A program made the translations under genes and the position numbers. A DNA stretch of 51,806 nt, taken from positions 1 through 51,806 of the forward strand of contig CAIVTJ010000045.1 in the NCBI GenBank assembly GCA_903908825.1. The letters are read 5' to 3'. Shown piece by piece: positions 9,421-50,243 of the stretch. The notes under the pieces are model-generated. The model saw nothing but the letters and a program-made list of their open reading frames with translations, had not been told where the DNA came from and did no database searches. This stretch comes from an uncultured Pseudomonadota bacterium (GTDB lineage: Bacteria > Pseudomonadota > Gammaproteobacteria > Steroidobacterales > Steroidobacteraceae). The number at the start of each line of letters is the position of its first letter. Position 1 is the first letter of the stretch.

Positions 9421-9497
9421 GCCTGCCCGCGCGAGGATTTTCTGGACACGCTCGGGCTCTGGCGCAACAGGCGCAACACGCAGGTTCGGGGGCTTTT

Positions 9498-32215: not shown

Positions 32216-33460
32216 ATGCTACGAAGTCAATTACTGCCTCTGACAGCCCTTGCGCTGCTGGCCGCTGCGGCGCCGGCCCAATCCCAGGTCATGCCGCCTG
32301 AGCACACGATGTCTCATGAGGACATGGCCGGCATGGAAGGGATGGAGGGTATGGAAGGCATGGCAGGCATGGACCACATGGCCGGCCATGGCCTGATGTG
32401 GCAGCGCGGCCCGTGGCTGTTGATGACCCATGGCACCCTCAACTGGGTTTACGACAATCAGGGCAGCCCGCGCGGGGGCCGCCAAGGGTTTCTATCCGGC
32501 ATGGTCATGGGCAGTGCCGAACGCTCACTGGCTGAAAACGACACCCTGAATTTAACGGCCATGCTCAGCCCTGAACCGCTGATGGGCCCTGAGGGCTATC
32601 CGCTGTTGCTGGCGGCCGGTGAAACTGCCGATGGCCGCACCCTGCTGGTCGATCGCCAGCATCCGCACGATCTGTTTATGGAGCTTTCGGGCCGGTACAG
32701 CCATGCACTGTCCGCCACATCCGGCGTCTGGCTGTATGCCGGTCTGCCCGGGCAGCCCGCATTCGGCCCCGCAGCCTTCATGCACCGCGAATCGATCAAC
32801 GACAGCCCGGAAGCACCCATCGCGCACCACTGGCTGGACTCGACGCATGTGAGTTTTGGCGTGTTGACGGCTGGCCTGCGCGTTACGCAGTGGAGCCTTG
32901 AGGCCTCGGCTTTCCGCGGCCGTGAGCCCGATCAAAACCGCTACGACATCGAGACGCCGCGCTTGGACAGCTGGTCTGCGCGGCTGTCCTGGCAACCCAC
33001 GACCACTCTCGCGCTGCAAACCTCGTGGGCGCAGCTGCACAGCCCGGAAGCGCTGGAGCCGCAACGTAACGAGCGCCGCTGGACCGCCAGCCTCAGCTAC
33101 ACCGGCCAAGCTTCAGATCAGGGATGGTGGGCCACCACTTGGGCGGTCGGCCGCAAACAGCCTGACGGACTGCCAGCACGCTCGGCTTGGTCGGCTGAGG
33201 CCAGTTACCACCCAAACGTGCAGTGGAGCCTCTACGGCCGGATCGAACAAGTGGAGTCGGACGAATGGCAGCCTGCGCTGGATTTGCAGCAAGCCCACAA
33301 ACTGACCCTGGGGGCTGTACATGACTGGCCCTTAGGCACACGCCTCTGGCTGGGCCTAGGCCTACAACTCTCGCAGGCGGGCGTATCGCCCGCGCTGCGC
33401 CCGGCCTATGGCAACCACCCCTACAGCGGCATGGGCTTCTTGCGGCTGCGCAGCCGCTGA
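32216..33460 (+). CDS. Putative outer-membrane beta-barrel protein with Met/His-rich N-terminal segment (family not recognised)
   Basis: Sec signal (ALALLAAAAPAQSQ), then HTMSHEDMAGMEGMEGMEGMAGMDHMAGHG, then about 340 aa of alternating-polarity strands rich in W/Y/G (WSLEASAF, WSARLSW, WTASLSY, WSAEASY, WSLYGRI). Contains a DRQHPHD motif. Confidence 0.75.
   Translation: MLRSQLLPLTALALLAAAAPAQSQVMPPEHTMSHEDMAGMEGMEGMEGMAGMDHMAGHGLMWQRGPWLLMTHGTLNWVYDNQGSPRGGRQGFLSGMVMGSAERSLAENDTLNLTAMLSPEPLMGPEGYPLLLAAGETADGRTLLVDRQHPHDLFMELSGRYSHALSATSGVWLYAGLPGQPAFGPAAFMHRESINDSPEAPIAHHWLDSTHVSFGVLTAGLRVTQWSLEASAFRGREPDQNRYDIETPRLDSWSARLSWQPTTTLALQTSWAQLHSPEALEPQRNERRWTASLSYTGQASDQGWWATTWAVGRKQPDGLPARSAWSAEASYHPNVQWSLYGRIEQVESDEWQPALDLQQAHKLTLGAVHDWPLGTRLWLGLGLQLSQAGVSPALRPAYGNHPYSGMGFLRLRSR
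32324..32386 (+). repeat. Seven in-frame tandem 9-bp units (ATG-GNN-GGN/CAC) encoding (M-x-G)n
   Basis: ATGGCCGGC ATGGAAGGG ATGGAGGGT ATGGAAGGC ATGGCAGGC ATGGACCAC ATGGCCGGC, read directly from 32324-32386. Confidence 0.9.
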
Positions 33461-33470
33461 CCGCTGCCGC

Positions 33471-34259
33471 TTAACGCGGATTGGTGTGGTGGCTGTCGTC
33501 CACCATGTGCTGCATGTCCTGCTCGATGCAGGGTGCTGGTTCGCCAAAGTCGACCTCTGACCGGGTAAGGGTACGCGGCCGCATGACCCAAGGCTGAGCC
33601 AGCATGACCGGGTCTTCGACCACAGCGCGATAGTCGATGGTATCGCCCGTCCGTCGCAGCCTTTCGGTAACGCGCAACTGGGTGCTGTGAATGGCGCCAT
33701 CGTCGGTCAGCCAGGTCTCTTCGTTGAAGTTGCGCGTTTCGACCACCAGCGTGTCGCCTTCCCAACGCCCCAGAGCCTCGCCCTGATAGGACTCGCTGTC
33801 ATCGTTGCGCTTGGCGTTCGCATCGAGCGGCACCACGCGGAAAAACGGACCTGACACGTCCTCATACAAGAAGATGACCTCGCGGGCGGTCTGCACGATT
33901 TTGTCCGGCGGGCCGATGCGCGGGACACCTGGAGGACGGCAGCGCAGCACCGGGTCGAACTGAACCTGTTTGGCTGCCAGCTCTTGAACGCGCGCCACAA
34001 ATTGCGGCTTGTAAACAGGCCGGTCCGGGACCACAACGGCACGCGGTGCCGGCTTTTGGCCTGACGGCGCACACCCGGTGACGCAGACCGAACCCTTGGG
34101 GCCGGCCACGGGTTTAACAAAGTCGATGCCGCCACCGTTCTCCCAGACCCCGTTCAGATCCGGATGACCGTTGATCAGATGAGGTGCCGACGCGGCGCCC
34201 CACACTAGCGACGCAAACAGCAGCGCTGCCACGCCCGACGCGATTGAGCGGATGGTCAT
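33471..34259 (-). CDS. Secreted protein of unknown function, family A paralogue 1
   Basis: Starts at ATG 34259, preceded by GGGGGAGG. Signal peptide MTIRSIASGVAALLFASLVWGAAS. Shares LNGVW, C-x-PPG-x-P, SYQGEALGRWEGDTLVVET, LRVTER and a C-terminal Cys with ORFs 34714-35505 and 36512-37405. Confidence 0.8.
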   Translation of the reverse strand: MTIRSIASGVAALLFASLVWGAASAPHLINGHPDLNGVWENGGGIDFVKPVAGPKGSVCVTGCAPSGQKPAPRAVVVPDRPVYKPQFVARVQELAAKQVQFDPVLRCRPPGVPRIGPPDKIVQTAREVIFLYEDVSGPFFRVVPLDANAKRNDDSESYQGEALGRWEGDTLVVETRNFNEETWLTDDGAIHSTQLRVTERLRRTGDTIDYRAVVEDPVMLAQPWVMRPRTLTRSEVDFGEPAPCIEQDMQHMVDDSHHTNPR

Positions 34260-34284
34260 ATCAGCCTCCCCCGTGTGCTTGTTG

Positions 34285-34704
34285 TTATGGATTAGCAGCA
34301 GACTTGTCGTTGGGATCGGGACTGAACTGCAGATGCCGGCCGTCACCGAAACTCATATCCAGTAGATAACCAAAGGCCGGCGTGCCATTGCGTGCCGGAT
34401 GAGCGGCGACGGTCACAGTCTGGCCCTCGCCCAGCAACTGCTGCTTGGACAAACCACCTTTGCGCATCATGGCCACCGGCAGGCACTCCAGCCGCCACGT
34501 GGTCACAGCACCACCCGCCTCTTTGACGTCAAGATAGACCGACGTGTGCGGATTGACCCAGTCCACCCGGCTGACCGTGCCGGTCAGTTTCAAGGTACGG
34601 CTGATGTCGAACACACCGGCTACCGAATGGTGAGCCGCCGCTGGCATCGCGAGGGCAGCCAGCGCAACAGCCAAAGAGGCCAACAGGTTTCGCTTCGCGT
34701 TCAT
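34285..34704 (-). CDS. Small secreted protein, family B paralogue 1 (mature N-terminus His-His-Ser)
   Basis: Signal peptide ...ALAMPAAA followed by HHSVAGVFD. Has a WVNPH motif. Paralogous to 35601-36020 and 36041-36451. Confidence 0.8.
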   Translation of the reverse strand: MNAKRNLLASLAVALAALAMPAAAHHSVAGVFDISRTLKLTGTVSRVDWVNPHTSVYLDVKEAGGAVTTWRLECLPVAMMRKGGLSKQQLLGEGQTVTVAAHPARNGTPAFGYLLDMSFGDGRHLQFSPDPNDKSAANP

Positions 34705-34713
34705 AAGACCGCC

Positions 34714-35505
34714 TTATTGCAAAATGGTATGACCCGACTCGTCGACAGGATTGCGATCATTTTCGGCGCAGACAAACTCCATCAAGCTCCACTCGCGCTG
34801 ACGGGTGAAGGTGTGGGTGATGTGATAGGGCTGCGCCAAAGCATCAGCGTCATCTAACGTGACTTCGTCGATAAAGGTCTGCGGATCTTTAGCATCCAAG
34901 TGCATGCGCTCGACGATATGTAACTTGGGGCTGTGCTTGATGCCGGGCCCCAGCTCGGTAATGGTCTTGATGCCCACAGTGTCGACGACCAACACCTGGC
35001 CGTCCCAATGGGCTGTTGAGTGGCCGAACACGCCGGGCTCCAGATCATCGGGGTGACCGCGACCGTCGGTGTAGATGGATCGCCATTGCATCCACGCCTC
35101 GTGGTGCACTGTCACCCGCCCGGGAGTGAACATGAACTCGATGGGGTATTGCGCAGTCGCCAGCATATTGGGCATGCCCGGTGGCATGCAGTTGGAGGTC
35201 TCGCGACGGACCACGCCGCTATTGCTCTTGACCTCGTTCTGCCACGCTTCATAGCGCTTGAGGTATTCACCCTTGAGCTGCGGACGCTCCCGGGGCGGCT
35301 CGCCCGGGGCCGGCGGCTTGGGGCGCGCCAAGACCCACACACCACCCCAGTCAGGCAAGGCGTTGAGCGCGGCGTAGGCTCCCTTGGGGAACGCGGCATT
35401 GACCGCCTGTTTTGAAGGGGCGGCTGCCGCACCGGCGACGCCCGCACCCAGCACAGAACACAGCAGCAGGGCCACAGGTCCGACGGTCAATCGTTGAAAT
35501 TTCAT
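34714..35505 (-). CDS. Secreted protein of unknown function, family A paralogue 2
   Basis: Starts at ATG 35505 (MKFQRLTVGPVALLLCSVLGAGVAGAAA). Motifs WGGVW, NCMPPGMPNM, FGHSTAHWDGQVLVVDT, LHIVER and EFVCAEND. The longer ORF reaching 35712 has no signal peptide and is rejected. Confidence 0.8.
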   Translation of the reverse strand: MKFQRLTVGPVALLLCSVLGAGVAGAAAAPSKQAVNAAFPKGAYAALNALPDWGGVWVLARPKPPAPGEPPRERPQLKGEYLKRYEAWQNEVKSNSGVVRRETSNCMPPGMPNMLATAQYPIEFMFTPGRVTVHHEAWMQWRSIYTDGRGHPDDLEPGVFGHSTAHWDGQVLVVDTVGIKTITELGPGIKHSPKLHIVERMHLDAKDPQTFIDEVTLDDADALAQPYHITHTFTRQREWSLMEFVCAENDRNPVDESGHTILQ

Positions 35506-35521
35506 ACTTGCACCCCCACTC

Positions 35522-35550
35522 TTATCTAACGGCCGCAGTAAGCATATAAT
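35522..35550 (+). promoter_or_regulatory. Putative promoter for the family-B gene pair (TTATCT-17 nt-TATAAT)
   Basis: Perfect TATAAT at 35545-35550. A weak -35 TTATCT lies at 35522-35527. Located in the 95-nt divergent intergenic region. Confidence 0.35.
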
Positions 35551-35600
35551 GCCCGTAGTCACAGTTGCACGCATCAGCCAATCAGGCTGGGGGACATCAG

Positions 35601-36020
35601 ATGAACATCCGTATTGCAATCGCATCTTTGGTGGCGGCCTCGGCCAGCGTGGCGCTGCCGGCTTATGCCCACCATTCGTTTGCCATGTTCGACCAGACCA
35701 AGCAGGTTTCACTCAAGGGCACTGTCACAGAGTTCCAGTGGACCAATCCGCATGCCTTTATTCACGTCGAGATCGCCGGTGACGGCGGCGCCAAAGAGAC
35801 CTGGGACATCGAGCTCAACAGCCCCAATAATCTCAAGCGTCAGGGCTGGAGTTCGAGCAGCGTCAAGGTGGGCGACAAGGTGGTCTTGGTTGCTAACCCG
35901 CTGCGCGAAAACGCCCACAAGGGTGGCTTATTCATCGCTGTCACGCTTCCCGACGGCACCGTCCTGGGCGATGCCACTCGCGCCGGTGGCGGCCCGATCA
36001 ATGTACCGGTCGTACCCTGA
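35601..36020 (+). CDS. Small secreted protein, family B paralogue 2 (mature N-terminus His-His-Ser)
   Basis: ATG 35601 preceded by GGGGGA. Signal ...VALPAYA followed by HHSFAMFD. Has a WTNPH motif. Confidence 0.8.
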   Translation: MNIRIAIASLVAASASVALPAYAHHSFAMFDQTKQVSLKGTVTEFQWTNPHAFIHVEIAGDGGAKETWDIELNSPNNLKRQGWSSSSVKVGDKVVLVANPLRENAHKGGLFIAVTLPDGTVLGDATRAGGGPINVPVVP

Positions 36021-36040
36021 ACTGTCTTAGGAGACACACC

Positions 36041-36451
36041 ATGAAGATCAGTCACATCGCATTAGCCACTGCCGGTTTGCTGGCTTTTTCGGCCCCGGCT
36101 TGGGTGCACCACTCCGGCGCCATGTTCGATCCGGGCCGTGAGCAGACCATCGTCGGCACGGTCACCGAGTTCAATTGGACCAACCCGCACTCGTCCTTCA
36201 AGGTTGAGGTCACTGACGCTGCCGGCAAGAGTGAGATCTGGGCGGTCGAGATGAACGGCCCGCAGAACCTGATGCACGACGGCTGGAAGCGCTCGAGCAT
36301 CAAGCCGGGCGACAAGATCTCGGCTGTGGTGCATCCGCTGCGCGACGGCAAGCCCGGCGGTTCGTATGTGTCAGTGACGCTGGCCGATGGCACCCAACTC
36401 AAGGGCACCGGCCCCGGCCAGTCGGGCTACGACGCGCCCGCTGCCAAATAA
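36041..36451 (+). CDS. Small secreted protein, family B paralogue 3 (mature N-terminus His-His-Ser)
   Basis: AGGAGA RBS. Signal ...FSAPAWV followed by HHSGAMFD. Has a WTNPH motif. Clearly similar to paralogue 2 (GTVTEF.WTNPH). Confidence 0.8.
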   Translation: MKISHIALATAGLLAFSAPAWVHHSGAMFDPGREQTIVGTVTEFNWTNPHSSFKVEVTDAAGKSEIWAVEMNGPQNLMHDGWKRSSIKPGDKISAVVHPLRDGKPGGSYVSVTLADGTQLKGTGPGQSGYDAPAAK

Positions 36452-36476
36452 GCCGGTCTTCGCAGTCTGTTTAAAG

Positions 36477-36498
36477 GGCGGCCCCGGTCGGGGCCGCC
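36477..36498. terminator. Strong GC hairpin between convergent genes (likely bidirectional terminator)
   Basis: GGCGGCCCC (36477-36485), loop GGTC, GGGGCCGCC (36490-36498). Only weak T-runs on either strand. Confidence 0.55.
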
Positions 36499-36511
36499 GC
36501 AGATCAGGGCC

Positions 36512-37405
36512 TTACTTCTTGGCCCGATCGTCCAGAGCCTTCTGACCTGCGCCCGTGCTGGGCAGGTTCTGGTTCAGGTTAGGTAAGCACTCCACTTCCG
36601 GAATGTCGCTGTAGTCCTGACGCAAAAAGTTCTTGCTGCTCTTCCATTCGCCGGGCCACATCTTCGGGTCGGTCAGGCTGTAGTCGATATGCATCGTCAT
36701 GCCCTTATCGAGCATGGTGATGCGTTCGACGATTTCAAACTCGTCGCTGATCGGTATACCCGAATCGATGTAGTGCTCGTTGGGCTCGATGTACTTGGTG
36801 CTGACCACCAGCGTGTCTTTTTCCCAATGACCAATCGACTCGCCGTTGTAAGTGGGCACCGCATAGTCAGAGTCTGCATGCTCCCGGCCATCGAGATAGA
36901 TGAAGCGCATGCTGTTGGTGAATGCGAACAACATGTAAATGATGGTGGGCTTCTGAATCATGCTGATGGGCCAGACGCGGGTCATGATCATCGGCATACC
37001 GATCGGGTAGCACTGACCGCTGACATCGCGATAAGCCACACCCTTCTTGCGGGCCTCTTCGGCTTCACGAAGGGCAGTCTGGCCGGGTTCTTTGAAGGCC
37101 GGATAGTTGGGGCCGAAACGGAAGTCGTTAAATGAACGGCGCAGATCAACAAACCAAGTGCCGGTCACATCGAAGGGTGCCTTGGGGCGCTTCTTGGCCA
37201 GGTTCTCGGGGGCCAGCGCACCCAAGTACTTCGGGTGCTTGTGGGCCAGCTCATCCATACGGTCTTGGCTGAGTCCACCGCCAGCCGTACGACCGGCTGC
37301 CGGTGCGGCAGGTGCCGCCGCTTGAGCGAAACAGAGCCCGGGCAGCGCCGAAAAAACGACCGACAAGGCCGCGGTCTTAGCAAAACCAGGAAGTGACTTG
37401 AACAT
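36512..37405 (-). CDS. Secreted protein of unknown function, family A paralogue 3
   Basis: ATG 37405 (MFKSLPGFAKTAALSVVFSALPGLCFAQA) preceded by GGAGG. Motifs VTGTW, QCYPIGMPMI, YNGESIGHWEKDTLVVST, FEIVER and EVECLPN. An alternative ATG lies at 37426. Confidence 0.8.
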   Translation of the reverse strand: MFKSLPGFAKTAALSVVFSALPGLCFAQAAAPAAPAAGRTAGGGLSQDRMDELAHKHPKYLGALAPENLAKKRPKAPFDVTGTWFVDLRRSFNDFRFGPNYPAFKEPGQTALREAEEARKKGVAYRDVSGQCYPIGMPMIMTRVWPISMIQKPTIIYMLFAFTNSMRFIYLDGREHADSDYAVPTYNGESIGHWEKDTLVVSTKYIEPNEHYIDSGIPISDEFEIVERITMLDKGMTMHIDYSLTDPKMWPGEWKSSKNFLRQDYSDIPEVECLPNLNQNLPSTGAGQKALDDRAKK

Positions 37406-37434: not shown

Positions 37435-40400
37435 TTAGCGGGTCGTTTTCAAACTGCGAACGAACTCAATTATGGGTGTAGTCACGGTCTGATCACCACT
37501 GCCCACAGAGTAGGATTCGGAAATATGCGAGTGTCCGGCCGCACGAAACTGCTGGTAAGGCAGGCCCGTGGCCGCCCGGGCGCGCACCAGCGCTGCAGCG
37601 TCGCTGATAAAACTCTCGGGATCGAGCTCGGCATGGGTAATCAATAACGGTACCGGACTACGCGCCAACAACTGCAGGGACTCGCGCGCCGCATACTGGC
37701 TGACATCCTCGCCGTAATAGTCCTTCCACACGGACACGGTGTTGCCCAAGGTGTAGATGCCGCTCATCAAGACCGCACCAGCCACGCCGGGCTGAGTCGT
37801 ATGCGCCAGGTAATCCGCGACATGCGCGCCGCCGGCGGAGTGACCCCACAGGATGATCTGCTGCGGATCACCGCCGTAGTCAGCCGCATGCGCTTTGAGC
37901 CAAGCGACCAGACGCGTCAGATCTTCTATGCCCGCCGGATATTGAAACTGCGGCGCAAGACGATAGTTGATGGTGATGCCGACCAAACCTTGACCAGCGG
38001 CCCACACACCGATGTTGTCGTAGAACGGTGAATCGGGCGCACTCTTGGCGCCCCCGCGAAACCCGCCGCCATGGACAAACACCAGTACCGGCTTGCCACG
38101 CTTGCCGTCATTGCCGGTAAACACGTTCACCCGGTGGCGCTCGTGCGGACCATAGGCGGCATCACGCTGTACCGTGACGCCGGCGTAAGGCTCGCGGGCT
38201 TGCAGCGGCGCATACAAGGGCGTGGTCTTGGCGCCATCTATGCGCGGGCCGATTTCCCGCAGGGCCGCAGCAATCGATGCAGGCATGCCACCCGTGGCCT
38301 GCGCTCGCGCTGCCGGCACAGCAAAGGCTGGCGGGATCGGGTAAGAGGCCATCTGCGCGGCTAGCGGCTGCAGCGACGGCAGTTGCGTGCGGCCGCTGAC
38401 CGGATTGGCATAGTGGTAAGGAATCTCATAGACCACCGGGAACATGGCAATAGGCAATGTGGGTGGCGAGTCAGGTGGAAACTCAGGACTGATGCCGGGC
38501 ATGCCACGACTGGAACCCTTGGCCCACCCTCCCTCGTAATTGGCCGACCAAGTGTTGTAGGTGTGCACGACACTGAAGCGCCACACGCCATTTTCTTTGA
38601 TGGCTTCATTCTCGTAAACCGAAGCACCCATAGAGGCGCGATTACCCAGGTTCATCTGTTGCAGCATGCGCAAGCGGATCTTGGCGCTGTTGCCATCGGC
38701 TGCCACATGGATGACCGGCTGCATCTGAATGTGGTTGCCCAATCGCCCGACGACAGGACCTTCTTCACCGCGACCAAACACTTTGATCAGGAAGTCACGC
38801 AAGCGCGCACCTTTGTAGACACCGCGCTGCGCCAGTTCGATGCTGCCTTCGGCCGCAAACAAGTTAGCCAGATCGGTCCACAGGTTTTTGTCGAGGTAAT
38901 AGCCGTAGGCGCTCTCGAGGTTTTCCAGCTCATGAAAGTCCTTGGCGCGAGCCACCAGACTCTCGGCTTGCGTCACTGCTGCCGCAACGTCTGTAACCGC
39001 CTTAGCCTTGACCGCAGCAGGCGTGAACAGCGTCGCCGCAGCGATAGCGGCACCCGGACCACCCACCTGCGGATAGACAGCCGGCGCACCGGTCACAGGA
39101 TTGCGGTAGTGATAAGGCGGCACATGCGCCTTGGGATAGATGGCATAAACCTGGGTCGGCGGCCGGTCGGGTGGCAGCGCAGCCAGCACGCCCGGTGCAG
39201 CTTGCGCATCCTTGGCCCAACCTTGGTCATAGTCGCTGATGAAAGTCGGGTAGTAATGCACCGACTGGAACTTCCAGACGCCACCTTCATTGACGTAAGC
39301 ATTTTCGTAAATGCCTTCGCTCCACTGACCACTCTTACCGTATGTGCCGGTCATAGACAGTTCGCGGCTACGCGCCCGCGCCGTCTTGCCATCGGGCGCA
39401 ACCGTCACCACCGTCTGCAATTGCAGATGGTCGTTAAGCCAGCCGGGCACCAGCCCATGCGGGCCTAAGGTGCCCAGGAAGGCGCGCACTCTGGTTTTGC
39501 CGACATACACGCCCTGCTGCGCGAACTCTAAGGTGCCCTTGCTCGCGAACAGATCGGCAATTTGATCCCACTGTGCGCGGTCCAGGTAATAGCCGTAGAT
39601 GCGCTGCAGGTTCTCGATGTCCTGCTCGTCGCGCAGACGTTGCGCGCGTCGCAGCAGGTCTGCAGCGGTCTGATGCAAATCACCTTCAACAGGCAGCACC
39701 TGCAGTTGGCTGGCATCCCAAGCCTGGCCACCGCTGAGCGTGGCGCCGGGATTGCTGTAATGAAAAGGCGCCAGGCAGGCCGCCGGAAACCCCTCGCAGT
39801 CCATCTTGCGTTCGACATCGGCCGGATGAGCCAGCGGCTGACGGACGCGGGTCGCGGTCGCAGGCGGGGCCACCCAGCCGCCGGCGTAGGGCGCACTGAA
39901 TCCGGTGTGATAGTCCAGCCGGGCAATTTTCCATACGCCATCACGGCGTACGTAATTCATCTCGTACACACCCTCTGCCCAGTTGGCGCCGTTACCGACA
40001 CCGCCAAAATAGGCCAACACCCGCCAGCGACCCTTAGCCGACTGTCCGCCCGGGTCCAGGTGGACCACAGGCTGGATGTTCATGTGGTTGTAGAGTCGGT
40101 TATCGCCAAGGCCTACCTGGCCCATGGGTACATTGCCGACATTACGGAACAGGTGCTCACGAATGCTGGCCTTGCCGATGAACACACCAGCCGGATAGTT
40201 GGCATAAGCGTCATCGGTGAACAACTCGGCCACATCAGCCCATAGGCCTTTGTCGACGTAATAGCCGTAGGTCCGTTGCAGTCGCTTGACGGCCTGCAGA
40301 TCTTCACCGGCCTGTACTTGGGCAGCCAGCAGGGCTGTACGCTCGGCCAGTGGCGACACAGCGGGCACACTGGCAGCCTGCCCTGACGTCCAAGCAGACA

Positions 40401-40452
40401 ACAAGGCCAGCGCGCAGCAGCGTAGTGCCAGTGTTTTAAAACTCATGCTCAC
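37435..40452 (-). CDS. Secreted multidomain protein: three NTF2/SnoaL-like modules plus a C-terminal alpha/beta hydrolase (esterase/lipase-type)
   Basis: Sec signal. Three repeats with L(Q/E)..YGYY(V/L)D...W.D.A.LF and GVW(K/R)(I/F) motifs, each followed by a P(F/Y)HY.NP linker. C-terminal HGGGF oxyanion motif (38059-38073) and GHSAGG nucleophile elbow (37828-37845). Confidence 0.85.
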   Translation of the reverse strand: MSMSFKTLALRCCALALLSAWTSGQAASVPAVSPLAERTALLAAQVQAGEDLQAVKRLQRTYGYYVDKGLWADVAELFTDDAYANYPAGVFIGKASIREHLFRNVGNVPMGQVGLGDNRLYNHMNIQPVVHLDPGGQSAKGRWRVLAYFGGVGNGANWAEGVYEMNYVRRDGVWKIARLDYHTGFSAPYAGGWVAPPATATRVRQPLAHPADVERKMDCEGFPAACLAPFHYSNPGATLSGGQAWDASQLQVLPVEGDLHQTAADLLRRAQRLRDEQDIENLQRIYGYYLDRAQWDQIADLFASKGTLEFAQQGVYVGKTRVRAFLGTLGPHGLVPGWLNDHLQLQTVVTVAPDGKTARARSRELSMTGTYGKSGQWSEGIYENAYVNEGGVWKFQSVHYYPTFISDYDQGWAKDAQAAPGVLAALPPDRPPTQVYAIYPKAHVPPYHYRNPVTGAPAVYPQVGGPGAAIAAATLFTPAAVKAKAVTDVAAAVTQAESLVARAKDFHELENLESAYGYYLDKNLWTDLANLFAAEGSIELAQRGVYKGARLRDFLIKVFGRGEEGPVVGRLGNHIQMQPVIHVAADGNSAKIRLRMLQQMNLGNRASMGASVYENEAIKENGVWRFSVVHTYNTWSANYEGGWAKGSSRGMPGISPEFPPDSPPTLPIAMFPVVYEIPYHYANPVSGRTQLPSLQPLAAQMASYPIPPAFAVPAARAQATGGMPASIAAALREIGPRIDGAKTTPLYAPLQAREPYAGVTVQRDAAYGPHERHRVNVFTGNDGKRGKPVLVFVHGGGFRGGAKSAPDSPFYDNIGVWAAGQGLVGITINYRLAPQFQYPAGIEDLTRLVAWLKAHAADYGGDPQQIILWGHSAGGAHVADYLAHTTQPGVAGAVLMSGIYTLGNTVSVWKDYYGEDVSQYAARESLQLLARSPVPLLITHAELDPESFISDAAALVRARAATGLPYQQFRAAGHSHISESYSVGSGDQTVTTPIIEFVRSLKTTR
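38383..40311 (-). repeat. Three tandem, diverged coding repeats (periods 672 and 690 bp) inside the 1005-aa gene
   Basis: The 12-mer GTAATAGCCGTA (plus strand, encoding YGYY on the minus strand) recurs at 38896, 39586 and 40258. The protein modules are about 224-230 aa apart. Confidence 0.85.
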
Positions 40453-40733
40453 TCCGGGATCCAGTGGCGATCGGCAGGCGCAGCGTTGGCCTTTAAGGCC
40501 TGAGCCTGCGGCACACCGCTGTCAATGTGGAACGCATAGGGGGGATAGGCCAGACACATGTCATCCACATGCCAGTCACCGCACGGATCTAGAGGCACGC
40601 AAACCTGAGTCAGTGGCGCGGCTTGCAACAAGGAGGCTGGCAACAGGCCTGCAACCAGACCGCCACCGACAGTCACCGTGATGCCGCCCAGAAACTGACG
40701 ACGTTGCAGGCAGGCTGACGCTAAGTCAGACAT
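40449..40733 (-). CDS. Tiny Tat-signal protein (about 94 aa precursor), function unknown
   Basis: MSDLASACLQRRQFLGGITVTVGG... is a twin-arginine motif plus h-region. AAGGAG lies 5 nt upstream of ATG 40733. Its stop overlaps the start of the 1005-aa gene (ATGA at 40449-40452). Confidence 0.65.
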   Translation of the reverse strand: MSDLASACLQRRQFLGGITVTVGGGLVAGLLPASLLQAAPLTQVCVPLDPCGDWHVDDMCLAYPPYAFHIDSGVPQAQALKANAAPADRHWIPE

Positions 40734-40742
40734 CACAGCTCC

Positions 40743-42176
40743 TTACACCTTGAACGGCGGCAGTTCGTTGGCACCGAACCAATTGGTGTGCGTGCCACCG
40801 CGCAGACGGAATGGCAGCTTGACCGTGGCCACAGCGCCTTCTTCCATGCGCTGCGCATCGACGATGACCAGATCACTGGACATCGACTCGTAGTTGCTGG
40901 CGATACCCAGCAGATAACCATCGCCCTCGCCTTTACTGCCCTTGCGCGGCACAAAGCAGCTCTCCTGCAGGCTCTGCACCGGGCCGACAAAATAGTTGCT
41001 GATCGCACCTGTGGTGACATCGACCCGCTGGTATTGGTTGGTCACGAAACCACCCATGCCGCCGGCGCGCGTCTTGTCGAAGGGCAGGTTCGGATCACGG
41101 TTGCCCACATAGCAATACTTGTAAGGCAGCGACAGATAGCGATCGTCCATACGCGCCAACACACCGTTGGACACCGACACCAGTTCTTCGTCGAAGGTGT
41201 CTTTTTTGGACTTCATGTTCATCGTCCAGCGCCGGATCTGCGATGGATCACGCTCACCGCTGGAGGTGGGCAGTTCCATGGTGATGCGGCCGTCCGGATG
41301 ATCTTGCGCATTGAGAAAGTGCAGCGTGTTGCGCGCCGGCCCTTTGAACCAACGCACGTCCTTGCCGCTGCCATCACGAGGCACCACAGCAAGCATCGTC
41401 GGCTTGCTGCCATCCCACTCCCACATCGGCTCGCCCGATTTCAGGCGCTCCAGGCTGGTGACACGCGGGATCAGCGGAATGATCACGTATTTCTGCGTGA
41501 TGGCGCAGTCATGCATGATGCCGACGTAAGGGGCCTTGAACCAGATGTCGTGCACGATCTGGCCCGACTTATCGATGATGTAAACAGCAATGTCGTCGGT
41601 CAGATCACCCTTGGCCTGATACCCATAGGCGATCATCTGGCCGTTGACTGGATCGATCTTCGGATGCGCCGAGAACGTCGTGGCGGTGTACTTACCGTTG
41701 AAGTTCCAGATGCCCTGAGTCTCTAGCGTGTGCGGATTGATGGTCCACGGCAATGAATCTTCTTTGAGCACCAGCATCTTGCCGCCGTGCCAATACAGAT
41801 GCGTATTGGCCGCCGAGCGATCGAGCTTGGCCACGCTGGGGTCATCGGTGTAGCGGTTGCGGTAAACGCCATATAAGCGCCGATGCGCATCGCGCTCGGC
41901 CTGCAAGCGCTGCGTCTGCACGTAGCGGCTGCGATAGTTGACGTTACCGTCCTTGAAGTAGAAACGGCTGACGTGACCGTCACCGTTAAAGCCTGTGGGC
42001 CATTCGTTCTGCGGCGGCCGGTACTGAAAGTCGCACTGGATGCGGTAGAACGAACCGTCGATATCCGCGGGCACTTTGCCCCAGACCTCACAGTCATAAA
42101 CATCGGCCTCAAAGCGCGTCGGCGCATTGAAGCCGGTGGCCGGGAACATCGGATGACCGCGGAAATCGACTGCCAT
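40743..42176 (-). CDS. Carotenoid-cleavage-oxygenase family protein, lignostilbene-alpha,beta-dioxygenase-like
   Basis: 477 aa, no signal peptide. Four candidate iron-ligand His contexts (SAHPKIDP, IMHDCAIT, LHFLNA, GGTHTNW). FNGDGHV, YRNRYTDD, AANTHLYWH and KEDSLP resemble LSD-type enzymes as I remember them. Confidence 0.9.
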   Translation of the reverse strand: MAVDFRGHPMFPATGFNAPTRFEADVYDCEVWGKVPADIDGSFYRIQCDFQYRPPQNEWPTGFNGDGHVSRFYFKDGNVNYRSRYVQTQRLQAERDAHRRLYGVYRNRYTDDPSVAKLDRSAANTHLYWHGGKMLVLKEDSLPWTINPHTLETQGIWNFNGKYTATTFSAHPKIDPVNGQMIAYGYQAKGDLTDDIAVYIIDKSGQIVHDIWFKAPYVGIMHDCAITQKYVIIPLIPRVTSLERLKSGEPMWEWDGSKPTMLAVVPRDGSGKDVRWFKGPARNTLHFLNAQDHPDGRITMELPTSSGERDPSQIRRWTMNMKSKKDTFDEELVSVSNGVLARMDDRYLSLPYKYCYVGNRDPNLPFDKTRAGGMGGFVTNQYQRVDVTTGAISNYFVGPVQSLQESCFVPRKGSKGEGDGYLLGIASNYESMSSDLVIVDAQRMEEGAVATVKLPFRLRGGTHTNWFGANELPPFKV

Positions 42177-42186: not shown

Positions 42187-44766
42187 TTAGAAGTTCTTCT
42201 TCACCGTCAGGGCCCACTCACGCGGACGCCCTGCAGTGCCTACGCGCGCATAAGTCGGGTAGCCGTCGAGGGCCCCGCCGCGGATGGTCTCGCTGCCCAA
42301 CTGCTGCCAATAGAACTTATCGAACAGGTTATTGGCCGACAGCGCCACCTGCCAACTGCCGCCGGCCGGCTCAAAGGTCAGGCGTGCGTTGACCAAGCCA
42401 TACGACGGCACGATGTCCTGCGGATCACGCTGCGGCAACGCTGCGTTACCGTTGGTGCGATAGCCCTGATAGCTGTAATCGACGCGCGGCGTCAGCTTGG
42501 CGCCACTCTCGAACAGCACCTGATACTGGGCACCGACACTGCCGTTGATCTTGGGCTGGATCAACGCTGACGAGTCACGATAGCTGAGGGTTCCCGGTGC
42601 CGCGTCACCACTAAAGGTGATGTAGCCGAAGGACGCGTTGAGCATCAACCCCTGCATCGGGAAGGCCGTGATTTCGGTTTCGAAACCACGCGTCTTACCA
42701 GGCTCGTTCAAGTACAGGAACCAGCTGGTACCGGCCAGACCGGCCCGCTCAGTGCCTGCCGGGCATGGCGCGCCGTTGAGGAAGTAGGGCTGGCCCGGGT
42801 CCGGGTTGGAACTGAGCGTGCACTGACTGGCCGTGCGGTTGACCAAGCGGCTCTTCCAGTCCATGTAGAACAAGGCTGAATTGATGCGTAGCTTTTTGTC
42901 GAACAGCTCGACCTTGCCGCCGAACTCATAGTTGATCACTTCCTCACCCGGCAGGCCTTGCACCTGGCCGATGGTGAATACGCGCGGCGTCACACCAGCC
43001 GAGGTAAAGCCGGTGGCCACCGACGTATACAGAAAGATGTTGTCCGTAGCCTGATAGTCCAGACCGACCTTGTAGTCAGGACGGCTGCCGCCGTAGTGCA
43101 GCGGAGATGGCAGCACCACCAGACCGTAGTGACGGAAATCATTGATCTTGCTTTCGTCGGTGTAACGCAAACCACCGGACAGGGCCAGCTTGTCCGTGAA
43201 CTTATAGCTGCCGTGCACAAAGGCCGAGGTGTTCTGCGATGAGAAGGTGTCATCCGCGACGAACTGCAGACCGAAGGTCACGAAGTTGGCGGTGTTATAG
43301 GCACGACTGTTGGACTTGTAATAAAACGCGCCCACGGTCCAGTCGAACTTGTCGGACAACAGCGTGCCGTCGATGCGCGCCTCAGCCTGGTACTGCGAAT
43401 GCTGCTGCAGGTAGTTGGTCTGCGTCAGCTCAAACGGCATCTCGTCGCTATCGTTGATCCAGGTGGTGTTATAGGTGCGATAGGCCGTCAACACGGTCAG
43501 CTTGGTCTTTTCGGCCAGTTCCTGATCCAGAGACAGCGAAGCACCCCAAGCCTTCAGGTGGGTGTAGCGGTCGTAGCTCACACCACTGGTGATGTCACCA
43601 TAGGTCGAGTAGTTGGTGTACGGGTTACCCGTTACGAAACGGTTCTGCGTCTGATAGTTGATACCGTACTTTTTGTAGATGGTCAGCGGATAGCCTGACG
43701 TGGGGACGTCGAGCGGTGCCCAAACCGTGGCTGTGGCACGACCGTCTGCATCACCGCGTGAGCTGAGCAGTGTCTCAACCGGCGGCTCGGACAGCTGGGC
43801 CGAATAGTCCATCGAGAAGTTGATCTCGGTCCCCGAGGCCGGCAGGAACCGCAGCATGGCGCGCACGGCCTGCGACTCTGAACCGCCCAGCGAGCCCAGC
43901 GCGCAGCCGTTGCCCTGACGCGGATCAATGGTCATGGGCATGGCAAACGAATTGTCAGCAGCGCTGCCGGCAGTGACCGGAGTAGGCAGACCACCGACGA
44001 CCGTCGGCGCCGCCAAGCCATCGCCGATACCGGCCAGCGTGGGCGTGCCGCGACGGATCATCTCGCAGGTGAAGTCCAGATTTTTGCCATAGCCGTCCTG
44101 ACGACGTGACACACCGGTCACGCGCGCGAACAGCGTATCGGGCACCAAGGAGAAGTCGGCAACAGCCTTCAGATCAACGCGCTGGCGCGCGCCGTAAGTG
44201 GCTTCGATATAGCCCTTGTCGTCGCCCTGCGGCTTCTTCGAGATCAGACGGATCGCACCGCCCATGCTGTTCTTGCCAAACAAGGTGCCCTGCGGACCGC
44301 GCAGCACCTCGACGCGCTCGAGGTCCATCAGGTCCATGGACGAGCCAGTGAGACTGCCGTGGTACACATCGTCGATATAAATACCCACAGCCGGCTCGAA
44401 GGCATAGTTGAAATCGACTTGGATCAGGCCGCGCAGACCGATGGTGGTGGTAGGGCCGTAGTTGCTGACCGGCTGACGGAAATACGCGTTGGGGATGACG
44501 CTGCCGATATCATCGAGGCTTTTGAAGCTGCGCTGCTCGAGGGCTTCGGCGCTCAGCGCCGTCAGCGTCAGCGGCGTGGACTGCAGGTTTTCTTCTTTGA
44601 AGCGCGCGGTAACCACGATCTCTTGCAGATCGTCGGCGTTGGCCTTGTCAGCAGCTTGGCTGGCTGTGGCAGAAAAGCTCAGCGCAGCGGCAACAGCCAA
44701 GGCGACAGCGCTACGGGCGGCAATACGGCAGTCAGACCGGCGTACCGGCAGTCGGATAGTCTTCAT
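42187..44766 (-). CDS. TonB-dependent receptor
   Basis: 859 aa. Signal peptide, TonB box-like LQEIVVTARF, plug motifs (IGLRG, VEVLRGPQGTLFGKNSMGGAI), a long beta-barrel and a C-terminal ...ALTVKKNF. Confidence 0.95.
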   Translation of the reverse strand: MKTIRLPVRRSDCRIAARSAVALAVAAALSFSATASQAADKANADDLQEIVVTARFKEENLQSTPLTLTALSAEALEQRSFKSLDDIGSVIPNAYFRQPVSNYGPTTTIGLRGLIQVDFNYAFEPAVGIYIDDVYHGSLTGSSMDLMDLERVEVLRGPQGTLFGKNSMGGAIRLISKKPQGDDKGYIEATYGARQRVDLKAVADFSLVPDTLFARVTGVSRRQDGYGKNLDFTCEMIRRGTPTLAGIGDGLAAPTVVGGLPTPVTAGSAADNSFAMPMTIDPRQGNGCALGSLGGSESQAVRAMLRFLPASGTEINFSMDYSAQLSEPPVETLLSSRGDADGRATATVWAPLDVPTSGYPLTIYKKYGINYQTQNRFVTGNPYTNYSTYGDITSGVSYDRYTHLKAWGASLSLDQELAEKTKLTVLTAYRTYNTTWINDSDEMPFELTQTNYLQQHSQYQAEARIDGTLLSDKFDWTVGAFYYKSNSRAYNTANFVTFGLQFVADDTFSSQNTSAFVHGSYKFTDKLALSGGLRYTDESKINDFRHYGLVVLPSPLHYGGSRPDYKVGLDYQATDNIFLYTSVATGFTSAGVTPRVFTIGQVQGLPGEEVINYEFGGKVELFDKKLRINSALFYMDWKSRLVNRTASQCTLSSNPDPGQPYFLNGAPCPAGTERAGLAGTSWFLYLNEPGKTRGFETEITAFPMQGLMLNASFGYITFSGDAAPGTLSYRDSSALIQPKINGSVGAQYQVLFESGAKLTPRVDYSYQGYRTNGNAALPQRDPQDIVPSYGLVNARLTFEPAGGSWQVALSANNLFDKFYWQQLGSETIRGGALDGYPTYARVGTAGRPREWALTVKKNF

Positions 44767-44913: not shown

Positions 44914-46998
44914 TCAGGGCTTGTGCGGCACCAGGCGTTGCAAAATATAGGCGCTGATGTCGGCAATCTGCTCCGGCGTGTAGATATCGCGGAACACCGG
45001 CATATTGTTGCGGCCCTGACTTGTGACCAAAGCGATCTGGGCGGTGTCCAGGTTACCGCCCACCAGCGTAGGTCCGCCGCCGTGCCCGCCACTACCGGAT
45101 TCGCCATGGCAGGCCACGCAAGCTGCCTGATACAGCGCCTGACCCTGCTCTGCCACACCAGCCCGTGACGCCACCGCGACCGCAGCAGCGCGCTGGGGCC
45201 CGGCTAAAGATGCGACCGGAACAGGACCGATCTTGCCATCTAGCGCAAACATCCAGATGCCATCGCCGCGTTTGCCATTGGCAAAGGCTCCGCCACCGGC
45301 ATGCACAACCACATATTGCTTGCCCTTGTGCTCAAAGGTCGTGACCGTGGTGTTGACGCCGGCATCGGTCTGGAACTCCCACAGCTTGGCGCCGGTGGTT
45401 TTATCGAGTGCAGTCAGCCGGCCATCGGCACGGCCGACAAACAACAGACCACCGCCCGTGACCACTGCACCGCTGTAGCAGATCTCGCGCCACTGCTGGC
45501 GCCACACCAAGCGATTGGTGCGCACGTCCAGCGCAGCCAGCACGCCACCATCATGAACCTGCGACTGCGTGAAGTTGCCGCCCATGTAAACCTTGTTGGG
45601 CCCGGGTGTTTCCAGCGGCAATCGCACCACGAAATTGCTGATACGATCGGATGCACACACATACAGCAGGTGACTGGACGGGTCATAAGCACTGGGCGGC
45701 CAGTTCGCACCACCCATGGTGCCGGGCTTCATCATCGTCGGCTCGTTCCAGAACGGCGTGAAGATGCGCCCGCCATTAGGAATCTCGCTGCTCCCGGGCA
45801 ACCGCCTCGCGTCCTCGGGGACGATGTCGATCTGCTGCGGCACGATGGCATCGCCCACCGGATAAGGCTGCGTAGCCGCCGTCTGCTGGCGCGGCTCTTG
45901 CGGCACAGGCTTTTCGGTGATGCCCAGCAACGGCTTGCCGGTCACGCGGTCAAGGATGTAGGCCCAACCGGTCTTGCCCACCTGCACCAGGGCTTTGCGC
46001 GTCTTGCCCTTGTAAGGCGCGTCGAATAACACCACCGGGTTGGGTGCGTCATAGTCCCAGATGTCGTGGTGCACTTCCTGAAAGTGCCAGCGGTAGCTGC
46101 CGGTGCGCACATCCAGCGCAACGATGGAATTGGCGAACAGGTTGTCGCCCTTGCGAACACTGCCGTTGAGATCGGGCCCGGGATTGGCCGTCGAGAAATA
46201 GATGAGACCCAACTCAGGGTCTATGGCCGGTGTCTGCCAGATCGACGCGCCGCCGCGTTGCCACGCATCACTGTCGGCAGGCCAGGTCTCGTGACCTTTC
46301 TCTCCCGGACCGGGCACGGTGTAGAACGTCCAAGTCAGCTTGCCGGTCTTGGCATCAAACGCGCGCAGTTTGCCGCGTGTGCCCATCTCGCCACCGTTTA
46401 CACCGGTGATGACCAGGCCATCAAAATACAGCGGAGCTGCCGTGATGGCGTAACCGTCTTCCCAGCGCTCGACCTGTGAGGTCCACACCACTGCGCCGCT
46501 ACGCTGATCCAGCGCCGTCAACTTGGCATCGGCCTGCGTGACAAACACTTTGCCATCGCCCAGAGCCACACCACGATTAGCCCGGCCTATGGGACTACCG
46601 GCATGCAGATCTGGATTGCCGTGGTAGGTCCACAGGATGTTGCCGGTCTCCACCTGCAGGGCGAACACATCGTTGGCGCCATTGCTGACGTAGAGCACCC
46701 CTTCATAGGAGAGGATTTGCGCTTGACCAGCATGACCCGGCGTGGTGCCGCTGTTCATACTGGTGCGCCACAGGGCGCGCAGACCTGCGACGTTATCGCG
46801 GTTCAGTGTCGACAGCGGGGAATAACGCTGGTTGTACAGCGTGCCGCCGTTGGTGATCCAGGCCGTGGTCGGCGGCGCCAGCAACTGGGCGGCAGAGAAT
46901 GCAGGTGCCGATGCTGGCGACTGGGCCAGCGAAGCTGAACTGGCCGTTAGCAGCAAGACCGCAGCCCAATGTGACAGTTGTGACGTCATCCGTGTCAT
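44914..46998 (-). CDS. PQQ-dependent quinohemoprotein dehydrogenase (alcohol-dehydrogenase family with C-terminal cytochrome c domain)
   Basis: ATG 46998 preceded by GGGGGAAG. Signal peptide. Eight-bladed propeller W-motifs (e.g. G..LW, G..VW). WDYD active-site segment. C-terminal CVACHG heme c motif. Confidence 0.9.
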   Translation of the reverse strand: MTRMTSQLSHWAAVLLLTASSASLAQSPASAPAFSAAQLLAPPTTAWITNGGTLYNQRYSPLSTLNRDNVAGLRALWRTSMNSGTTPGHAGQAQILSYEGVLYVSNGANDVFALQVETGNILWTYHGNPDLHAGSPIGRANRGVALGDGKVFVTQADAKLTALDQRSGAVVWTSQVERWEDGYAITAAPLYFDGLVITGVNGGEMGTRGKLRAFDAKTGKLTWTFYTVPGPGEKGHETWPADSDAWQRGGASIWQTPAIDPELGLIYFSTANPGPDLNGSVRKGDNLFANSIVALDVRTGSYRWHFQEVHHDIWDYDAPNPVVLFDAPYKGKTRKALVQVGKTGWAYILDRVTGKPLLGITEKPVPQEPRQQTAATQPYPVGDAIVPQQIDIVPEDARRLPGSSEIPNGGRIFTPFWNEPTMMKPGTMGGANWPPSAYDPSSHLLYVCASDRISNFVVRLPLETPGPNKVYMGGNFTQSQVHDGGVLAALDVRTNRLVWRQQWREICYSGAVVTGGGLLFVGRADGRLTALDKTTGAKLWEFQTDAGVNTTVTTFEHKGKQYVVVHAGGGAFANGKRGDGIWMFALDGKIGPVPVASLAGPQRAAAVAVASRAGVAEQGQALYQAACVACHGESGSGGHGGGPTLVGGNLDTAQIALVTSQGRNNMPVFRDIYTPEQIADISAYILQRLVPHKP

Positions 46999-47066
46999 GT
47001 CTTCCCCCAGACAATTTCTTATATGCGGCATTATGCGCTTACTCAATTGCCGATAAAGAAGCGCTC

Positions 47067-47477
47067 ATGGCACTGCGTACTCTGGAACACTTTTTGGTGT
47101 TGAGCCATCAGCCCGAAGCAACACGCAATTTTTACCGGGATGCACTAGGCCTGGTCGAAGGTGACAGACCCGATCTGGGCTTTCCTGGCTATTGGCTATA
47201 CCTAGGCTCAGTGGCCTGCATCCACATTGCTGAGTGGCACAGTTACACCGCGCACAGCCAAAGCATCGGCATACCCGTCAGCACACCGGCGGCCGGCACA
47301 GGCGGGCTGGATCATCTGGCTTTTCAGGCCGGCAATTACGAGGCGTTTGTGGCCAACCTGAGCCGCCATGGCATTGCGGCACACCGGCACGACACACCGG
47401 CCATAGGCCTGCGTCAGTTATTTTTGTTTGACCCCAACGGCATCAAGTTGGAGATCAACTTCCAGCAGGGCCACTGA
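47067..47477 (+). CDS. VOC-family protein (glyoxalase / extradiol dioxygenase fold)
   Basis: 136 aa with LEHFLVLSH...FYRDALGL and LDHLAF...FLFDPNGIKLEI motifs typical of the VOC fold. Confidence 0.75.
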   Translation: MALRTLEHFLVLSHQPEATRNFYRDALGLVEGDRPDLGFPGYWLYLGSVACIHIAEWHSYTAHSQSIGIPVSTPAAGTGGLDHLAFQAGNYEAFVANLSRHGIAAHRHDTPAIGLRQLFLFDPNGIKLEINFQQGH

Positions 47478-50213: not shown

Positions 50214-50243
50214 GCGGGAATCCTCGGTCTTGCGGTGCGGCGC

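Follow-up and report, generated by a model that had tools for sequence, protein, structure and literature searches.

An uncharacterized family of exported proteins and DUF6152 form a conserved bacterial partner module with a putative N-terminal histidine metal site

What do six exported proteins do when they belong to only two families, neither of which has an assigned function, and when their genes stand side by side in 4 kb of DNA? Such an array lies at 33471-37405 of contig CAIVTJ010000045.1 (assembly GCA_903908825.1) from an uncultured bacterium of the Steroidobacteraceae (Gammaproteobacteria), which we analysed over positions 1 to 51,806 of the forward strand; this whole stretch is called the window hereafter. 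Three of the genes encode a family without a name, here called family A, and three encode a second family, B. The locus raises the questions of whether A and B belong together, what each of them is, and what they might do in the cell envelope.

On the minus strand, A1 (34714-35505, 263 aa), B1 (34285-34704, 139 aa) and A2 (33471-34259, 262 aa) form one unit which A2 closes, B2 (35601-36020, 139 aa) and B3 (36041-36451, 136 aa) lie on the plus strand, and A3 (36512-37405, 297 aa; alternative start at 37426) is again on the minus strand. That these six genes fall into two paralogous families had been proposed in a sequence-only reading of the window, and both the listing of open reading frames (ORFs) and the paralogue alignments agree with it. 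The A paralogues share 26-32% pairwise identity and can be aligned over their whole length (A2 against A3, BLASTP E=1e-11), and the B paralogues share 32-43% (B1 against B3, E=1e-19). The ordered motifs listed in that reading are likewise seen in the alignments, namely PDxxGxW, CxPxGxP, RxIxxD, GxSxGxWxGDTLVVxT, ER and a C-terminal Cys in A (in A1, PDWGGVW, Cys106, Cys246 and GHWDGQVLVVDT) and HHS..FD, GTV..WxNPH and W..E in B. By inspection, all six proteins carry a basic n-region, a hydrophobic core and an AxA-type site, in agreement with the export signals suggested for them; the signal peptides of B1 and B2 end in AAA and AYA, and the mature proteins B1, B2 and B3 are predicted to start with HHSVAGVFD, HHSFAMFD and HHSGAMFD, respectively. 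The array contains two paralogous secreted families, far beyond what chance would produce.

The association of A with B extends well beyond the window. A scan of one genome per species gave at least 480 confirmed family-A loci, the best 80 of which were analysed; these come from Alpha-, Beta- and Gammaproteobacteria, Acidobacteriota (Bryobacterales, Terriglobia), Verrucomicrobiota (Verrucomicrobiia) and Actinomycetota (Acidimicrobiia). Pseudomonas mediterranea (L057) and Sphingobium xanthum (L008) are among the tractable species that carry the module. The A and B genes of the loci were found on six-frame ORFs with hidden Markov models (HMMs) built from our own A and B alignments. Among the 136 A genes in 83 non-redundant loci, 92 have a B gene within 400 bp, 89 of them on the same strand, and the gene order is about balanced (47 A-then-B and 42 B-then-A); correspondingly, 92 of the 100 B genes in these loci adjoin an A. 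The converse sample, comprising 80 metagenome loci anchored on B2-like genes, contains an A gene in 63 loci, and in 23 of the 28 whose flanks extend for at least 1 kb on either side. Stop and start codons of B and A genes are often interlocked, the reading frames overlapping by 1-4 bp. Moreover, three B-A fusion proteins (L071, L073 and P0255) were found, each consisting of a signal peptide, an AxA site directly followed by HH, a B domain, a Pro/Gly linker and an A domain. No A-then-B fusion was seen, as would be expected if the N-terminus of B must stay free, which with three fusions is only suggestive. The sequence-only reading had made its proposal of two partner families depend on co-occurrence in other genomes, and co-occurrence across phyla, together with fusion, is what these data show. 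The partnership is not absolute, because A genes without B and B genes without A exist. Nevertheless, the assignment of A and B as exported partner proteins of one conserved module is firmly supported, and a physical A:B complex is probable.

The arrangement of the array is itself conserved. In the contigs that bear orthologues, the same array genes adjoin rimP-nusA-infB; the layout is identical to that of the window in L086, L089, L106 and L169, reads B-B next to A1-B-A2 in L001, and in L004 runs on one strand as dioxygenase, small ORF, esterase with three SnoaL domains, A3-B-B-A1-B-A2, where the esterase gene and the A3 orthologue share 4 bp. A2, which matches the family-A HMM at 4e-62, has orthologues at the equivalent place in L001, L004 and L169. 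When each A and B in 160 foreign loci was assigned to a subfamily by its best match to the six proteins of the window, A3 followed by B2 was found in 25-28 cases, B3-like genes preceded A1-like genes in co-directional arrays, and B1-like genes always stood between A1-like and A2-like genes. This consistent subfamily pairing therefore gives A3-B2-B3-A1-B1-A2 as the ancestral order. Gene order would make A3:B2, B3:A1 and B1:A2 the cognate pairs, though B1, placed between A1 and A2, could just as well go with A1. Relative to it, the B2-B3 segment (35601-36451) is inverted in the window and in L086, L089, L106 and L169 and co-directional in L004 (9125-9962), L091, L107, L117, L126 and L130, and both states are common in metagenomes; a search around B2-B3 for flanking inverted repeats of the invertible-element type gave short imperfect matches only. 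In the divergent intergenic region between A1 and B2 (35506-35600), a perfect TATAAT is present along with GGGGG as the ribosome-binding site of B2, and gc(a/g)TATAATg with GGGGG is kept in six of the eight aligned orthologous regions between a minus-strand A and a plus-strand B, the exceptions being L106 and L105. The TATAAT was not flagged by a generic promoter scan because its -35 element is weak, and the eight aligned regions contain no conserved palindrome and no Fur- or Zur-like box. Based on the conserved array order, the paralogues are therefore ancient, each with its own orthologues. The view that the array arose by local diversification through duplication thus has to give way to that of an ancient six-gene unit, each member of which has orthologues on other contigs, and the conclusion that the window holds three ancient A-B pairs inherited as one block is firmly supported.

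B1, B2 and B3 are clear members of the Pfam family DUF6152 (PF19649), an entry without assigned function, with bit scores of 83.1, 129.5 and 108.4 against a gathering cut-off of 27 (E=1.5e-23, 5e-38 and 2e-31, respectively), and B homologues carry precomputed PF19649 annotation, which turns the tentative naming of DUF6152 in the sequence-only reading into a firm one. The AlphaFold2 model of B2 (predicted local distance difference test score, pLDDT, 81) shows five strands in a barrel and one short helix. Foldseek matches it best to the oligonucleotide/oligosaccharide-binding (OB) folds of the single-stranded DNA-binding proteins SSB/Rim1, of PriB and of the N-terminal anticodon-binding domain of lysyl-tRNA synthetase (E=5e-4, target-normalised template modelling (TM) score 0.6-0.7), suggesting that B is an OB-fold protein of about 115 residues in its mature form. 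In 96 diverse B sequences, positions +1 and +2 are His-His without exception and position +3 is Ser in 78, while position -1 is Ala in 87 and otherwise Gly, Ser or Val, and position -3 is Ala, Val or Leu in 88. At sequence level, an AxA-type site directly before HH thus makes His the first mature residue, and this cleavage context is conserved in the 96 homologues. His-His is also present in 135 of the 135 B genes of the B-anchored metagenome loci and in 118 of 120 database homologues, the other two being truncated gene calls, so that its invariance rests on about 350 B sequences in all (96, 135 and 120). In the numbering of B2, H24, H25 and H51, the last of which lies in NPH, are invariant, and E71 and D31 are conserved at 97% and 91%. 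Taken together, cleavage context and conservation suggest that mature DUF6152 starts with a free His-His and has a further invariant His and carboxylates.

Such an N-terminus has precedents. The histidine brace is built on a conserved His that signal-peptide cleavage leaves at the N-terminus, and histidine braces support oxygenase and peroxygenase chemistry (PMC10952591). In another study, an N-terminal His after cleavage was used as a predictor of metalloproteins, and four of four tested families bound Ni or Cu (PMC12537917). DUF4198 binds Ni and has TonB-receptor neighbours, Ang-1 and Ang-2 bind Cu and are fused to membrane permeases, and DUF6702 was also tested; none of the four tested families had meaningful oxidase or peroxidase activity (PMC12537917). 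DUF6152 is mentioned neither in that paper nor in its supplements. The features of B are consistent with these precedents, and B probably binds metal through its free N-terminal His-His. The sequence-only reading had ascribed a binding or processing role to the array in general terms and had missed the invariant mature His-His of B, which points to metal binding. Literature searches on DUF6152, on DUF6644 (a membrane protein family next to the module, see below) and on 'histidine brace' with 'OB-fold' found no paper, and as far as we found, the family-A partner, the His-His N-terminus, the fusions and the DUF6644 association of DUF6152 have not been described before.

The partner family A is large and without annotation. 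At E<=0.01, neither Pfam nor NCBIfam contains a family that matches A1, A2 or A3. In a Pfam scan of 46 family-A members at E<=5, only three matched anything (two DUF5893 and one SCP2_2, best E=0.12), and no lipocalin or fatty acid-binding protein (FABP) model was among the matches. Sequence-profile searches of the PDB with A and with B returned noise only and no relative of known structure. An exhaustive profile search of sequences clustered at 50% identity nevertheless found 14,884 family-A representatives with a cut-off of E<=1e-3 and 8,221 with one of E<=1e-10, and the more than 1,305 close homologues of A1 are all named 'hypothetical protein' or unnamed. The earlier view that neither family had been characterized is upheld by these searches. 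In the AlphaFold2 model of A1 (pLDDT 77), nine predicted strands form a barrel behind an N-terminal helix, and Foldseek matches the model best to calycins, namely CRABP2/FABP, tardigrade secretory abundant heat-soluble (SAHS) proteins and nitrobindin-like barrels. This match is weak (E=2.5e-3, target-normalised TM score 0.56, root-mean-square deviation (RMSD) about 7 Å) despite a probability of 1.00, and A may accordingly be described as a candidate calycin/FABP-like barrel. Cys106, Cys246, G55-x-W57, G161, W167, L172 and E199-R200 are essentially invariant in 129 diverse A sequences, with G55 conserved at 100% and W57 at 94% and the GxW placed as in lipocalins; no His is conserved at 80% or more among the same sequences. 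The two Cys would form a disulfide. A Met-rich site of the Cu(I) type in the CxPxGxP loop was also considered and rejected: Met is more frequent there (9% versus 2.7%), but Val, Leu and Phe are also accepted at this place. In addition, 17 of the top 150 family-A representatives are A-A tandem proteins of about 415-530 aa, mostly 450-530 aa (e.g. P0244, P0247, P0249 and P0251), and the Acidobacteriota loci L052, L054, L064 and L079 contain runs of three to five A genes with few or no B genes.

Which genes accompany the module was analysed with neighbour gene calls rebuilt with a GC3 (third codon position) criterion, comparing the flanking position with genes further out within 10 kb. Genes of the TonB-dependent receptor (TBDR) type make up 11 of 192 flanking genes versus 15 of 865 further out (odds ratio 3.4, p=0.003), and DUF6644-like genes, present in 15 of the 83 loci, 12 of 192 versus 13 of 865 (odds ratio 4.4, p=5e-4); at least one of the two gene types lies within 10 kb in 34 of the 83 loci. 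The link to a TBDR drawn in the sequence-only reading is thus supported as an enrichment at the flanking position, but a TBDR gene is adjacent in only 11 of the 83 loci, lies within 10 kb in 23 and is absent from most. An A-B pair also occurs in a metagenome-assembled genome assigned to the Acidimicrobiia (L074), which are monoderm and therefore not known to possess TBDRs. Because TBDRs occur in a minority of loci and the pair is found in this genome (the assignment being as binned), the TBDR is not a defining component of the module.

DUF6644 genes almost always come as two tandem paralogues, usually directly beside A or B and mostly on the same strand (L031 at 8900-9943, L015, L016, L027, L029, L030, L038, L046, L055, L066, L167 and others). 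By inspection, each protein has about four hydrophobic segments that appear to span the membrane; the first contains an invariant His and the third a Lys, and a GRxI motif lies at the C-terminal end. A recurrent 'unknown 342-aa' neighbour proved to be an antisense gene-call artefact, the real gene being that of a DUF6644 membrane protein. The order in L031 is DUF6644-DUF6644-A-B-cytochrome c', and in L027 a cytochrome c' gene likewise lies directly downstream of B; on a plasmid of Sphingobium sp. TomTYG65, A-B-A-B converges on DUF6644-DUF6644-TBDR, and a plasmid of Croceibacterium atlanticum carries B-B-A-TBDR-MarR. Apart from this, the immediate neighbours are heterogeneous, with about 94 Pfam families among about 80 genes in each of two batches, and the commonest are TonB-dependent-type outer-membrane transporters, major facilitator superfamily (MFS) transporters and DUF6644. 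Within about 5 kb, pyrroloquinoline quinone (PQQ) dehydrogenases, tannase/feruloyl esterases, short-chain dehydrogenases/reductases (SDRs), amidohydrolase_2 proteins, aldehyde dehydrogenases and P450s each occur in three to six loci, and several other hydrolases and oxidoreductases adjoin the clusters in one to three loci each. Typing of the neighbouring PQQ dehydrogenases as lanthanide- or calcium-dependent by regular expression gave no match.

In the window, A3 is the last gene of a minus-strand string which comprises a TBDR gene (42187-44766), a gene similar to RPE65/lignostilbene dioxygenases (40743-42176), both identified by Pfam/NCBIfam match, a 95-aa ORF with the twin-arginine-like signal RRQFL (40449-40736) and, directly upstream of A3, a gene for a secreted esterase with three SnoaL_4 domains and an alpha/beta-hydrolase domain (37435-40452). 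With gaps or overlaps of at most 30 bp, the TBDR gene is probably co-transcribed upstream of A3, and the proposal that A3 ends a TBDR operon is plausible in this respect, though A3 is four genes away from the TBDR gene. The string of dioxygenase, small ORF, esterase and A3 is kept in L004 and L169, in L004 without a TBDR gene at that place. The 95-aa ORF has the N-terminus QRRQFLGG and a hydrophobic stretch and overlaps the esterase start by 4 bp, and small ORFs of 82 aa and 94 aa take its place in L004 and L169. The dioxygenase lacks a signal peptide, and the 95-aa protein could be its 'hitch-hiking' partner for twin-arginine translocation. The esterase, of 1005 aa with three tandem SnoaL_4 domains and a C-terminal hormone-sensitive-lipase-type esterase domain, is unusual; L004 and L169 also have it upstream of A3, and the Sphingomonadaceae locus L015 contains a homologue close to an A gene.

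Further out, the minus-strand genes at 44914-51701, upstream of the TBDR gene, encode a quinohaemoprotein PQQ dehydrogenase with a cytochrome c domain, a 480-aa ankyrin-repeat protein, a DUF1552 (HXXSHH) protein and a DUF1592/1588/1585/1595 protein, the last two forming a pair of the 'Planctomycete cytochrome/PSD' type. In L004, a string of DUF1592-type, DUF1552 and ankyrin (145 aa) genes adjoins the array, with no PQQ dehydrogenase among the genes shown. On the other side of the array, a plus-strand gene (32216-33460) encodes a 414-aa secreted protein with the Met/His-rich stretch MSHEDMAGMEGMEGMEGMAGMDHMAGHG, which is without a Pfam family; more than 7,600 matches place it in a very large 'hypothetical/porin' family. 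In Terricaulis silvestris (L170), a homologue overlaps the stop codon of a gene for a CsoR/RcnR-type metal-sensing repressor, and this overlap suggests a copper- or nickel-related outer-membrane channel. The gene flanks the array in the window and in L169 and is absent from that place in L001 and L004.

Comparison with known systems places the module near several of them and inside none. Like lytic polysaccharide monooxygenases (LPMOs), CopC, YcnI, PCuAC-like PmoF, DUF4198, DUF6702 and Ang-1/2, B is predicted to be cleaved by the Sec pathway directly before a conserved His, is extracytoplasmic and has a further conserved His and carboxylate; DUF4198 and Ang-1/2 moreover share the association with TonB-receptor or membrane-permease genes that is seen around A-B. 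There are also differences. Its fold is modelled as an OB-fold, whereas LPMOs, CopC, YcnI, DUF4198 and Ang-1 have immunoglobulin-like, fibronectin-III or cupredoxin-like beta-sandwiches, so B would be at most a new scaffold for an N-terminal His site. Its His-His is 100% conserved, compared with 65-79% reported for the N-terminal His of DUF6702 and DUF4198, and it usually, though not always, comes with a calycin partner. In fold, B resembles CusF, the Cu(I)/Ag(I) chaperone of CusCFBA, a small periplasmic five-stranded barrel of the OB type which hands metal to a transporter. CusF binds its metal through an internal His, two Met and a Trp and not through its N-terminus, and unlike B it has no calycin partner. 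ZinT/YodA, a periplasmic zinc-binding protein that cooperates with uptake systems, has a calycin-like barrel, and its LSDWDGVW resembles the LPDWGGVW of family A. Its mature N-terminus is His-rich (HGHHSH) on the barrel protein itself, whereas here the His residues are on the separate OB-fold protein B; we know of no precedent for such a split into two proteins. The antiparallel beta-barrel predicted for A would be shared with lipocalins and FABPs, as would its N-terminal GxW and disulfide-type Cys pair, and A differs from classical calycins by its extra N-terminal helix, its CxPxGxP loop and its larger mature size (about 230 residues). By analogy, A-B would work most like N-terminal-His metalloproteins, CusF and ZinT without being a member of any of these groups.

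On this basis, we tentatively favour, at somewhat less than even confidence, the reading that A-B is a periplasmic module for metal capture and hand-over. A and B would be the two subunits of a conserved extracytoplasmic module, in which signal peptidase would cut B exactly before the invariant His-His, and the alpha-amine and imidazole of His1, together with His2, His28 and Glu48/Asp8 (mature numbering), would form a putative metal site of the histidine-brace type. The bound metal would most likely be Cu(II) or Ni(II), with Zn, Co and Fe as further candidates, though the choice is speculative. A, as a disulfide-stapled calycin barrel, would dock B in a 1:1 ratio and either hold a small ligand or chelator or act as an adaptor that passes the metal on. 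The metal or metal chelate would then move between the outer-membrane TBDRs and the inner-membrane DUF6644 pair, or towards periplasmic enzymes; the direction of transfer is speculative. Metal capture and hand-over is preferred because the only neighbours shown to be positionally enriched are transport components (TBDR and DUF6644, the two types compared), and because, by analogy, all tested families with an N-terminal His are binders and not enzymes (PMC12537917).

A number of observations weigh against this reading. For a metal chaperone, it is unusual to be present as three pairs in a single operon and in many copies in a genome, and neither a TBDR nor a DUF6644 gene lies within 10 kb in 59% of the loci. 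The visible neighbours are very mixed, and many are catabolic (esterases/tannases, PQQ dehydrogenases, zinc-type alcohol dehydrogenases and glutathione S-transferases), and metal-homeostasis genes and regulators (Fur, Zur, NikR, CopA and Cus) are not among the 25 most frequent neighbour Pfam families of either batch. No B gene is found within 2.5 kb of 34 of the 136 A genes (7 of these 34 lie within 600 bp of a contig end), and L110, L116 and L122 have B with DUF6644 but without A. In A1, residues 104-112 (CxPxGxP) and 247-251 (ExxC) are the most conserved segments, yet their pLDDT is below 50, as might be expected of a disulfide-stapled loop whose ordering requires disulfide formation or the partner. 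Moreover, known metal-handling families failed to accommodate either partner. By hhalign, the probability that B matches E. coli YobA, and hence CopC, is 0.6%, and that DUF6644 matches E. coli YebZ, and hence CopD, is 0.07%. B and CusF (hand-entered sequence) align over 63 columns in the same topological order at a probability of 8%, but B has no Pfam CusF match and its His51 falls opposite a non-ligand residue of CusF. A and ZinT (hand-entered sequence) align over 15 columns only at a probability of 8.6%, A has no conserved His cluster, and ZinT is not among the top 50 Foldseek matches of the A1 model.

Part of this evidence would sit better with an enzyme. A-B may be a two-subunit periplasmic redox metalloenzyme, in which B carries a histidine-brace Cu (or Fe) while the substrate, hydrophobic or aromatic, sits in the barrel of A and could be, for instance, a lignin-derived stilbenoid or ester that the TBDR imports; cytochromes or PQQ quinohaemoproteins would supply electrons, and the pairs would differ in substrate. 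This explanation stays in contention because the neighbourhoods are largely catabolic, metal regulators are missing among the commonest neighbours and the paralogues are many. The many copies per locus and genome are usual for catabolic families, and a metal-type site that is invariant in B while the rest of both proteins varies would be expected of an enzyme, as would the oxygenase and peroxygenase chemistry ascribed to histidine braces (PMC10952591). The SnoaL-esterase and lignostilbene-dioxygenase-like genes strung with A3, the tannase/feruloyl esterase, PQQ dehydrogenase (six loci and the window), SDR, aldehyde dehydrogenase, amidohydrolase_2 and P450 genes nearby and the cytochrome c' after B in L027 and L031 point in the same direction. 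However, no enzyme family is a consistent neighbour, and the catabolic genes may simply mirror the gene content of soil taxa; positional enrichment was found for TBDR and DUF6644, the only neighbour types compared; no catalytic residues can be assigned in A; and the four N-terminal-His families of PMC12537917 lacked meaningful oxidase or peroxidase activity. We therefore rate a redox enzyme as unlikely, if a serious contender. The bolder joint claim, that DUF6152 is a new OB-fold histidine-brace scaffold which, with A, forms a previously unrecognised class of two-subunit periplasmic oxygenases or oxidases, acting on lignin-derived or hydrophobic aromatics delivered via TBDRs with electrons from cytochromes or PQQ quinohaemoproteins and DUF6644, is improbable, more so than a redox enzyme in general.

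Metal need not be involved at all. A and B could be metal-independent ligand-binding or escort proteins, A being a lipocalin-like carrier and B an adaptor whose His-His is structural or used in docking, which take over hydrophobic organic substrates from TBDRs and deliver them to transporters or enzymes of the inner membrane. Folds of the calycin/FABP type to which A is likened typically bind small hydrophobic molecules, TBDR, MFS and DUF6644 genes are neighbours, and the many paralogues and the 25% of A genes without B within 2.5 kb would suit a carrier. The match of A to lipid-binding barrels is nevertheless the weak one given above, and neither the invariant His-His, third His and Glu of the roughly 350 B sequences nor the constant N-terminal place of B in the fusions would be explained, so that we consider this explanation improbable, somewhat more so than a redox enzyme. 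Finally, A and B might be unrelated secreted proteins whose genes are incidentally interleaved in this lineage, as the occurrence of some A genes without an adjacent B and some B genes without an adjacent A might suggest. Same-strand adjacency across several phyla in both gene orders, translational overlaps, subfamily pairing and three fusions speak strongly against this, and chance adjacency is excluded for practical purposes.

These results turn a very large family A, for which there was neither a Pfam/NCBIfam model nor literature, and a B known only as a bare DUF into a defined and testable system. It is defined by three results, the partnership of A with B across phyla, the occasional fusion of the two and the constant His-His N-terminus of B. 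If B does bind metal, an OB-fold scaffold and a two-protein architecture would join the small set of N-terminal-histidine metalloproteins, and a functional context would emerge for the DUF6644 membrane pair that recurs beside the module. The module would then represent a widespread periplasmic metal-handling step, or less likely a step of oxidative catabolism, in soil and freshwater Proteobacteria and Acidobacteriota.

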